In this document: positions 7,164 to 8,223 of the stretch, in pieces
How positions within the stretch are numbered: the stretch's first letter is position 1
How the letters are laid out: each line of letters opens with the position of its first letter
NCBI RefSeq assembly: GCF_044647545.1
Contig: NZ_CP172818.1
Source: Escherichia coli
Lineage (GTDB): Bacteria; Pseudomonadota; Gammaproteobacteria; Enterobacterales; Enterobacteriaceae
Length of the DNA: 64,000 nucleotides
Reading direction: 5' to 3' (one strand)
Position numbers and translations under genes: made by a program
The notes under the pieces: model-generated
Told to the model about the DNA's origin: nothing
What the model saw: the letters and a program-made list of their open reading frames with translations, nothing else
The model's database searches: none

Positions 7164-8223
7164 ATGCTACCATCTATTTCAATCAACAATACCAGCGCAG
7201 CTTACACAGAATCCATCAATGAAAATAACAATGATGAAGTTAATATATTAGTACAAGAGCTCAAAAACCTTTTTAATGGTAAGCAAGGAATAAGCACCTG
7301 TGTTAAACATCTACTTGCGCTTATAAAAAACGCCATACGAGGAAACGACAATCCTGATAGATTTAATATTAATAATTCCTCAGTTACTTATATTGATATT
7401 GGCTCCAATGATACAGACTATATTACTATTGGTATCGATAACCAAGAAACAATAAAATTACTTGCGAGCTATAAAGACAAAGAACTCGTCCGTGCTATCA
7501 TTAATGACAACATAGTTGAGAAGAAAAAAAACTCATGATATCAATAACAAGGAAATGATCTTCAGCGCATTAAAAGAAATATATGATGGAGATCCTGATT
7601 TTATCTTCAATAAGATATCACAAAAACTCAGACATACGATAACGGAATTTGATGAGAATGGGAAAAGCGAACCAACGGACTTATTTACCTGGTACGGTAA
7701 AGATAAAAAAGGCGATTCTCTCGCTATTGTAATTAAAAATAAAAACGGAAATGATTACTTATCTCTCGGTTACTATGATCAGGACGACTACCACATTCAA
7801 AGAGGAATTCGTATTAATGGTGATAGTCTCACCCAATATTGTAGTGAAAAAGCCAGGAATGCTTCAGCGTGGTTTGAAAGCAGTAAAGCTATCATGGCAG
7901 AATCATTTGCAACAGGTTCCGATCATCAGGTTGTAAACGAGCTCAACGGGGAAAGACTGAGAGAGCCAAACGAAGTTTTTAAACGTTTAGGTCGAGCAAT
8001 AAGATATAATTTTCAAGTGGACGATGCAAAATTTAGACGCGATAATGTAAAAGAAATAATTTCTACTTTAGTCGATAACGAAGTTGACCTTTCTCAAAAT
8101 AAATATGACCACTTTAAGGAAATCGAAGATAAAGTTGAAAAAAGGCTTCAAAATCGCCAGGCTAAATATCAAAATGAAATTAATCAACTATCTGCATTGG
8201 GTGTTAATTTTGATGATAATTAA
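7164..8223 (+). pseudogene. yfdF: yfdF homolog interrupted by a +1 frameshift in an A8 homopolymer (7524-7531)
   Basis: Two ORFs (7164-7538 and 7516-8223) in adjacent frames overlap at the A-run; removing one A gives a continuous 352-codon frame reading ...IVEKKKTHDINNKEMIF... Confidence 0.75.

Follow-up and report, generated by a model that had tools for sequence, protein, structure and literature searches.

A private 188-nt loss in a length-variable segment interrupts icaT (yfdF) in an Escherichia coli genome record

The gene yfdF of Escherichia coli, also called icaT, is activated by MxiE/IpgC and encodes a type III secretion apparatus substrate (PMC9241512, PMC9769918). Here, we describe the copy carried by a 64,000-nt stretch of E. 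coli DNA (contig NZ_CP172818.1 of RefSeq assembly GCF_044647545.1, hereafter the window), in which the reading frame is lost at a run of eight adenines (A8) at positions 7524–7531. A preliminary description of the window had read this as a +1 frame change in a homopolymer, owing either to a genuine pseudogene, possibly by slipped-strand variation of a poly-A tract, or to a sequencing error. Pseudogene and sequence artefact are both still live explanations, but the lesion that they have to explain is a 188-nt deletion and not a change in a homopolymer. Relative to the near-clonal E. coli IMT16316, the window gene lacks one copy of an internal duplication except for six adenines, and these make up most of the run. 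We favor, at an even level of confidence, a strain-private icaT null allele that was made by deletion and not by homopolymer slippage.

The broken frame and its junction

Direct reading confirmed that the gene is split. GAGAAG at 7518–7523 is followed by the A8 and then by CTCATGA, which in the 0 frame is read as AAA AAA AAC TCA TGA. The first open reading frame (ORF; 7164–7538, plus strand) encodes 124 aa ending in ...IVEKKKNS, of which codons 1–120 are native and are followed by the out-of-frame KKNS and the premature TGA of the shifted frame at 7536–7538 (plus strand). The 120 native residues include the secretion-signal region, which in IcaT comprises the first ~20 residues (PMC9241512). 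The remaining coding sequence lies in the +1 frame of the same strand (7531–8223), runs from an ACT at 7531 to the TAA at 8221–8223 and comprises 230 codons plus the stop, reading ...KKTHDINNKEMIF.... Neither candidate start for these 230 codons is convincing: a TTG at 7516 has no Shine–Dalgarno motif, and an ATG at 7555 is directly abutted by AAGGAA. The window holds no full-length icaT ORF, the frame being lost after codon 120. When one A is removed, the two parts fuse into a single ORF of 1059 nt and 352 aa with the junction ...IVEKKKTHDINN..., in line with the preliminary description, which had further equated the 352 codons with the length of K-12 YfdF. The two lengths are indeed equal, but this is coincidental: set against K-12, the repaired protein gains two lysines at the junction and is two residues short near the C-terminus.

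Over ~59.7 kb the window differs from IMT16316 by no single-base insertions or deletions (indels) and by two single-nucleotide polymorphisms (SNPs). Both SNPs are in mlaA and synonymous, for which reason mlaA was dropped as a lineage marker. There are no mismatches in 38.9 kb, another 10.8 kb are 100% identical, and positions 430–7524 are identical as well, which takes in the first ORF as far as 7524 (100% identity). Around the junction, the two sequences agree over 425 nt 5′ of it and over 770 nt 3′ of it (7531–8300). In this clonemate the identical flanks encode one uninterrupted 415-aa ORF, and the split in the window is therefore a specific lesion and not a chance feature.

The intact 415-aa gene of IMT16316 is a long allele with a 195-nt diverged internal duplication. 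Its second copy (R2) lies between two ACTCATGAT sequences and shares 69% identity with the copy before it (R1; 195 nt each), a value that is higher in the 3′ 130 nt. Pairwise alignment revealed the duplication; Tandem Repeats Finder returned nothing on the long allele, as the copies are too diverged. The window retains the core of R1, the first copy (7394–7523, plus strand), and by BLAST the window sequence from 7394 on aligns to the IMT16316 repeat 2. Between the flanks, 194 nt of IMT16316 are replaced by six adenines, and removal of 149 nt and 39 nt from either side of the AAAAAA within R2 turns the IMT16316 allele into the window gene at 1060 of 1060 nt. The A8 (7524–7531, plus strand) is the deletion junction. 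Each of the two ACTCATGAT copies contributes its A, the first at the 5′ end of the run and the second at the 3′ end, and the AAAAAA between them survives from inside the lost repeat 2; since these account for all eight bases, untemplated bases are unnecessary. The net loss relative to the IMT16316 allele, 188 nt, is not a multiple of three, which shifts the frame and leads to the stop at 7536–7538. No natural A-rich template was found at the end of repeat 2.

The A-run is missing at this site from every other allele that we examined. In K-12 (BW25113), GAGAAG is followed directly by ACTCATGAT (in wider context ...GTTGAGAAG joined to ACTCATGATATC...), and there is likewise no A-run in B1-type icaT, in the O55:H7 allele, in the long allele of IMT16316 or in any of ~110 junction sequences from metagenome contigs. 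A change in length of a pre-existing poly-A tract of yfdF, as first proposed, can thus be set aside, and slippage from A7 to A8 in a K-12-like gene was rejected outright. For the same reason, the suggested comparison of tract lengths across E. coli genomes is uninformative. A pattern allowing 1–30 bases between GAGAAG and ACTCATGATATC gave 0 matches in the metagenome collection and in 100,044 species-representative genomes; the normal junction, which served as a positive control for the junction search, is present on 108 metagenome contigs. None of 5,426 complete E. coli genomes matches the window junction in one piece, and neither do the 108 yfdF-bearing metagenome contigs. On the protein level, the exact 124-aa product was found on one contig only, of 4,499,902 bp, among ~15 billion proteins, whereas at least 1000 contigs encode the intact 415-aa protein, and the cluster relatives of the 124-aa product all carry the intact long allele.

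The other homopolymers of the window are accurate by the same comparison. None of 90 runs of at least 6 nt differs in length from IMT16316 over the 59.7 kb (19 are of at least 7 nt and four of 8 nt), which makes a homopolymer sequencing error unlikely as the primary cause of the split.

Identity, silence and natural variation of the gene

The window gene lies between fadL (5451–6797, plus strand), its upstream neighbor, and the convergent mlaA (8402–9157, minus strand), the same position as in four of four annotated E. coli genomes inspected, and a terminator-like hairpin with a 14-pair stem and a following T run (8361–8392, plus strand) stands between it and mlaA. In RefSeq the orthologue goes by yfdF, or by icaT (“invasion chromosome antigen IcaT”) where the annotation is newer, and 4,294 genomes with a gene so named show 88–97.6% nucleotide identity to the window gene. 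The repaired window protein is identical to K-12 YfdF at 301 of 354 aligned residues (85%). In a HMMER search of 1.84 billion representative proteins we found no YfdF/IcaT homologues outside its own E. coli/Shigella family (44 of 44 matches are the same protein), and the weak transposase similarity behind the icaT name was not recovered among these representatives. A Pfam scan gave no domain in either yfdF fragment, only sub-threshold noise. The AlphaFold model of the long-allele protein of IMT16316 (L001, 1565–2809) is unusable, with a mean pLDDT (predicted local distance difference test) of 40, and repeat 2 is predicted to be disordered.

The promoter of the window gene carries an intact MxiE box, TGAGCGTTTTTTGATAG (7091–7107, plus strand), that begins 73 nt 5′ of the ATG. 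In both sequence and spacing it equals the experimentally validated yfdF box of S. flexneri 2457T (PMC9769918, Table S2). A scan with the plasmid-type MxiE consensus (≤3 mismatches) misses it because chromosomal boxes differ at positions 1, 2, 4 and 13. The GC content of the gene is 0.29–0.39, compared with ~0.51 in fadL and mlaA, and such an AT-rich island is consistent with silencing by H-NS. icaT has been described as AT-rich and H-NS-silenced in Shigella and E. coli alike (PMC9769918), and across phylogroups A, B1, D and E of E. coli it is conserved yet silent, possibly a fossil gene according to its discoverers (PMC9241512). The window gene hence shares with icaT of S. flexneri and E. coli the fadL–yfdF–mlaA locus, the identical box at −73 and the AT-rich composition, and it matches the phylogroup D/E/F-type long allele exactly over its 5′ 360 nt and its 3′ 693 nt. 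It differs from known icaT in that the frame is broken past codon 120 and in that the “internal addition” of the long allele of phylogroups D and E (PMC9241512) is gone save six A's. The window shows no evident Shigella plasmid context.

The duplicated segment varies in length in nature. The R2 spacings in metagenome contigs (L010–L117) fall into nine classes of 180, 183, 186, 195, 210, 213, 222, 228 and 240 nt, all nine of them multiples of 3, which suggests that the frame is maintained although the gene is silent in E. coli. In the short allele the loss runs precisely from one ACTCATGAT repeat to the other, and a 350-aa allele (P0037) is an in-register R1/R2 recombinant. These natural alleles (352-aa short, 410–440-aa long and 350-aa P0037) involve the same duplicated segment as the window lesion, bounded by ACTCATGAT, but they keep the frame, whereas the window loss is of 188 nt, out of frame, with a 6-nt island and without microhomology. 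Two of the metagenome contigs, L016 and L069, have an in-frame A8 in repeat 2 (GATGAAAAAAAAGTC / GATGAAAAAAAACTC) where IMT16316 has GAAAACAAAAAAG. A8 tracts do arise naturally in icaT, though elsewhere than the A8 of the window, and it was these variants that prompted the exact two-deletion decomposition given above.

Inactivated copies of the gene are also common. Approximately 15 of 96 evaluable metagenome icaT copies have early stops, disruption is frequent in S. dysenteriae (PMC9241512), the O55/O157 form (phylogroup E) is a C-terminally truncated protein of 343 aa, and the insertion sequence IS1 sits in the icaT region of some genomes. A clade of the long allele on at least 22 contigs (including L006 and L008, yfdF start at ~1922) has lost its start codon by a change of ATG to ATA, and as a result gene callers give only an internal 222-aa ORF. 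This 222-aa downstream product, which occurs on 95 contigs, was considered as a sign of other carriers of the window lesion and rejected, given that the calls trace to unrelated lesions: either the loss of the start codon or, in an assembly prone to errors, the absence of 1 nt from another A6 run. That assembly is contig L007 (GCA_052953255.1, 217–2213), in which, besides the 1-nt loss in the A6 run of yfdF, fadL is in two ORFs and yfdC is truncated; L007 is a homopolymer-error-prone assembly, unlike the window. The start-loss, 343-aa, IS1 and S. dysenteriae alleles are independent losses, as is that of the window, and fit the view of a fossil gene; the window lesion came about by a different mutational mechanism and is so far a single record.

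Private anomalies elsewhere in the window

Three further features of the window set it apart from its relatives. The first is a 135-nt AT-rich intergenic patch by sixA (290–425), which has ~15 small indels and substitutions relative to IMT16316 between identical flanks. Approximately 1,200 complete genomes agree with the IMT16316 version, and the 100,044 species representatives do not contain a 24-mer taken from the window version; the lack of any match there led us to reject an import from another Escherichia species. The appearance is that of sequence left unpolished locally, or of a hypermutated patch. The second is an 11-nt deletion between 52010 and 52011 (TAAAAAAGCCG in IMT16316), by which the nupC–pdeA terminator hairpin has lost its 5′ half; it has no counterpart in any complete E. 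coli genome.

The third concerns argW (tRNA-Arg), of which only the 5′ half is present (~10460–10503), cut in the anticodon loop; ARAGORN finds no tRNA at this truncated gene. It is followed by ~14 nt of unclear origin and, from ~10518, by a 3.8-kb remnant of a KplE1/CPS-53-like prophage. The remnant (to ~14342) carries yfdM'–yfdS-like ORFs that are ~95% identical to K-12, lacks the integrase side and ends in the attR core CTGCAGGGGACACCA (~14328–14342). In IMT16316 argW is intact and the prophage is absent, and the argW–prophage junction is private to the window record. The three clean deletions, in icaT, at nupC–pdeA and in argW, could equally be genuine.

Deletion, assembly artefact or another origin

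Under the deletion reading, the ancestor would have carried the 415-aa long allele, as in near-clonal relatives such as IMT16316. R2 would then have been lost save its internal AAAAAA, with 149 nt and 39 nt gone on its two sides (net 188 nt), and the retained A6 would by chance have come to lie between the A's of two ACT codons, giving the A8. In the shifted frame, translation would halt at 7536–7538 after 120 native codons. The promoter and its MxiE box are intact, but icaT is H-NS-silenced and requires MxiE/IpgC of the Shigella invasion plasmid. Given that the gene is not expressed in ordinary E. coli, its loss should be neutral and decay is to be expected; a phenotype is accordingly not anticipated. 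The loss probably originated as one complex event in a repeat-rich and length-unstable segment.

Whether the deletion is present in the cell, and not only in the assembly, is to us evenly balanced. The perfect flanks, the accurate bases, the unstable segment and the dispensable gene all speak for a real deletion. Several findings weigh against it. Two deletions 6 nt apart in a nearly SNP-free clone demand a single complex event, and the result is the sole out-of-frame length variant seen, the natural ones all being in frame. There is no exact microhomology at the breakpoints of the 149-nt and 39-nt gaps, the nearest similarity being an imperfect 7/10 match (GTTGAGAAGA / GATGAAAACA). This is unusual for deletions by replication slippage, for which breakpoints in direct repeats or microhomology are looked for, and the window lesion has neither. 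Lastly, the same 64 kb holds the other private anomalies, namely the noisy 135-nt patch, the 11-nt terminator deletion and the truncated argW.

A serious possibility, if one with less than an even chance, is that the strain truly has the intact 415-aa allele and that the assembler or polisher swapped 194 nt for 6 in this AT-rich repetitive segment. Polishing tools can produce such replacements, for example by local break-fix reassembly. The lesion falls exactly in the 69%-identical tandem duplication, and its lack of microhomology, together with its occurrence on one contig among ~15 billion proteins and in 0 of 5,426 complete genomes, would fit an error of this kind. So would the noisy patch at 290–425, which resembles unpolished long-read consensus, and the private 11-nt hairpin deletion in the same record. 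However, the junction flanks are perfect, with no noise of the sort seen in that patch, and 0 of 90 homopolymers differ and no further indels occur in the 59.7 kb. In addition, R1 and R2 are diverged enough (69%) for unambiguous assembly, as on more than 1000 other contigs.

The part of the slippage idea that could still hold is a two-step origin, given that seven A's restore the ORF. An in-frame A7 allele would have come first, in which two lysine codons take the place of 65 codons (...EKKKTHD..., 352 aa), and one A would then have been added by slippage or by a read or consensus error. We consider this unlikely. An in-frame intermediate would suit the natural length variants of the segment, which are all in frame, A7 gives a clean 352-aa ORF, and runs of 7–8 A are hypermutable (PMC1088944). 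The A7 allele itself was not found, though, given the 0 matches to the 1–30-base junction pattern and the cluster relatives that all have the long allele. Moreover, the single-step splice of two deletions accounts for all eight A's from template, and 0 of 19 other runs of at least 7 nt are miscounted.

A broader proposal, which we regard as rather improbable, is that the icaT lesion belongs to a set of clean deletions without microhomology that are private to this strain, the others being the loss of the 3′ half of argW along with the integrase side of a KplE1-like prophage and the 11-nt terminator loss. Together they would be traces of rapid reductive evolution, or of an unusual end-joining-type repair, in an IMT16316-like clone, with the A8 possibly leaking some in-frame IcaT by polymerase slippage. 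The chromosome contig measures 4.50 Mb, roughly 0.4–0.7 Mb below near-identical clonemates.

It is very improbable that the A8 serves as a phase-variable contingency tract or as a programmed slippage site regulating icaT, as in Shigella mxiE. The run does lie inside the coding sequence of a type III secretion system (T3SS)-linked gene, tRNA-Lys could re-pair perfectly on it in the +1 frame, and RNA polymerase slippage on A8 can give some A7 mRNA (PMC1088944). Yet the tract is missing from every orthologue examined and, not being conserved at the orthologous site, a phase-variable locus was rejected outright. There is also no RNA structure 3′ of the run (fold z = −0.22), icaT is transcriptionally silent without MxiE/IpgC, and the 8 nt of the run fall short of the ~9 nt from which, in most bacteria, slippage is efficient (PMC1088944). 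Selection against A-runs is generally evident from ~9 bases, and an A8 in one human case gave about a tenth of full-length product (PMC1088944). By analogy, polymerase slippage on the window A8 could yield a small fraction of A7 mRNA, but since icaT is untranscribed without MxiE/IpgC or relief from H-NS, no phenotype would be expected of it. Shigella mxiE (U-run), Thermus dnaX (A9) and insertion sequence elements (A9) likewise have a frame change in a homopolymer run, with low-level bypass possible in principle. Their runs are conserved with both frames under selection, whereas the A8 of the window is a by-product of deletion, seen in one genome, shorter and without stimulatory elements.

What the window carries is thus no homopolymer length variant of yfdF. 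It is either the ordinary disruption, private to one strain, of a gene known to decay, or an error of local assembly. The biological weight of the allele is small, given that icaT is silent and often decaying outside Shigella and a further null allele is expected. As the record has several private anomalies within 64 kb, it calls for caution in pseudogene and pangenome analyses. The internal duplication of icaT, on the other hand, is a natural hot spot of in-frame length polymorphism and may be of interest to those who study this T3SS substrate.
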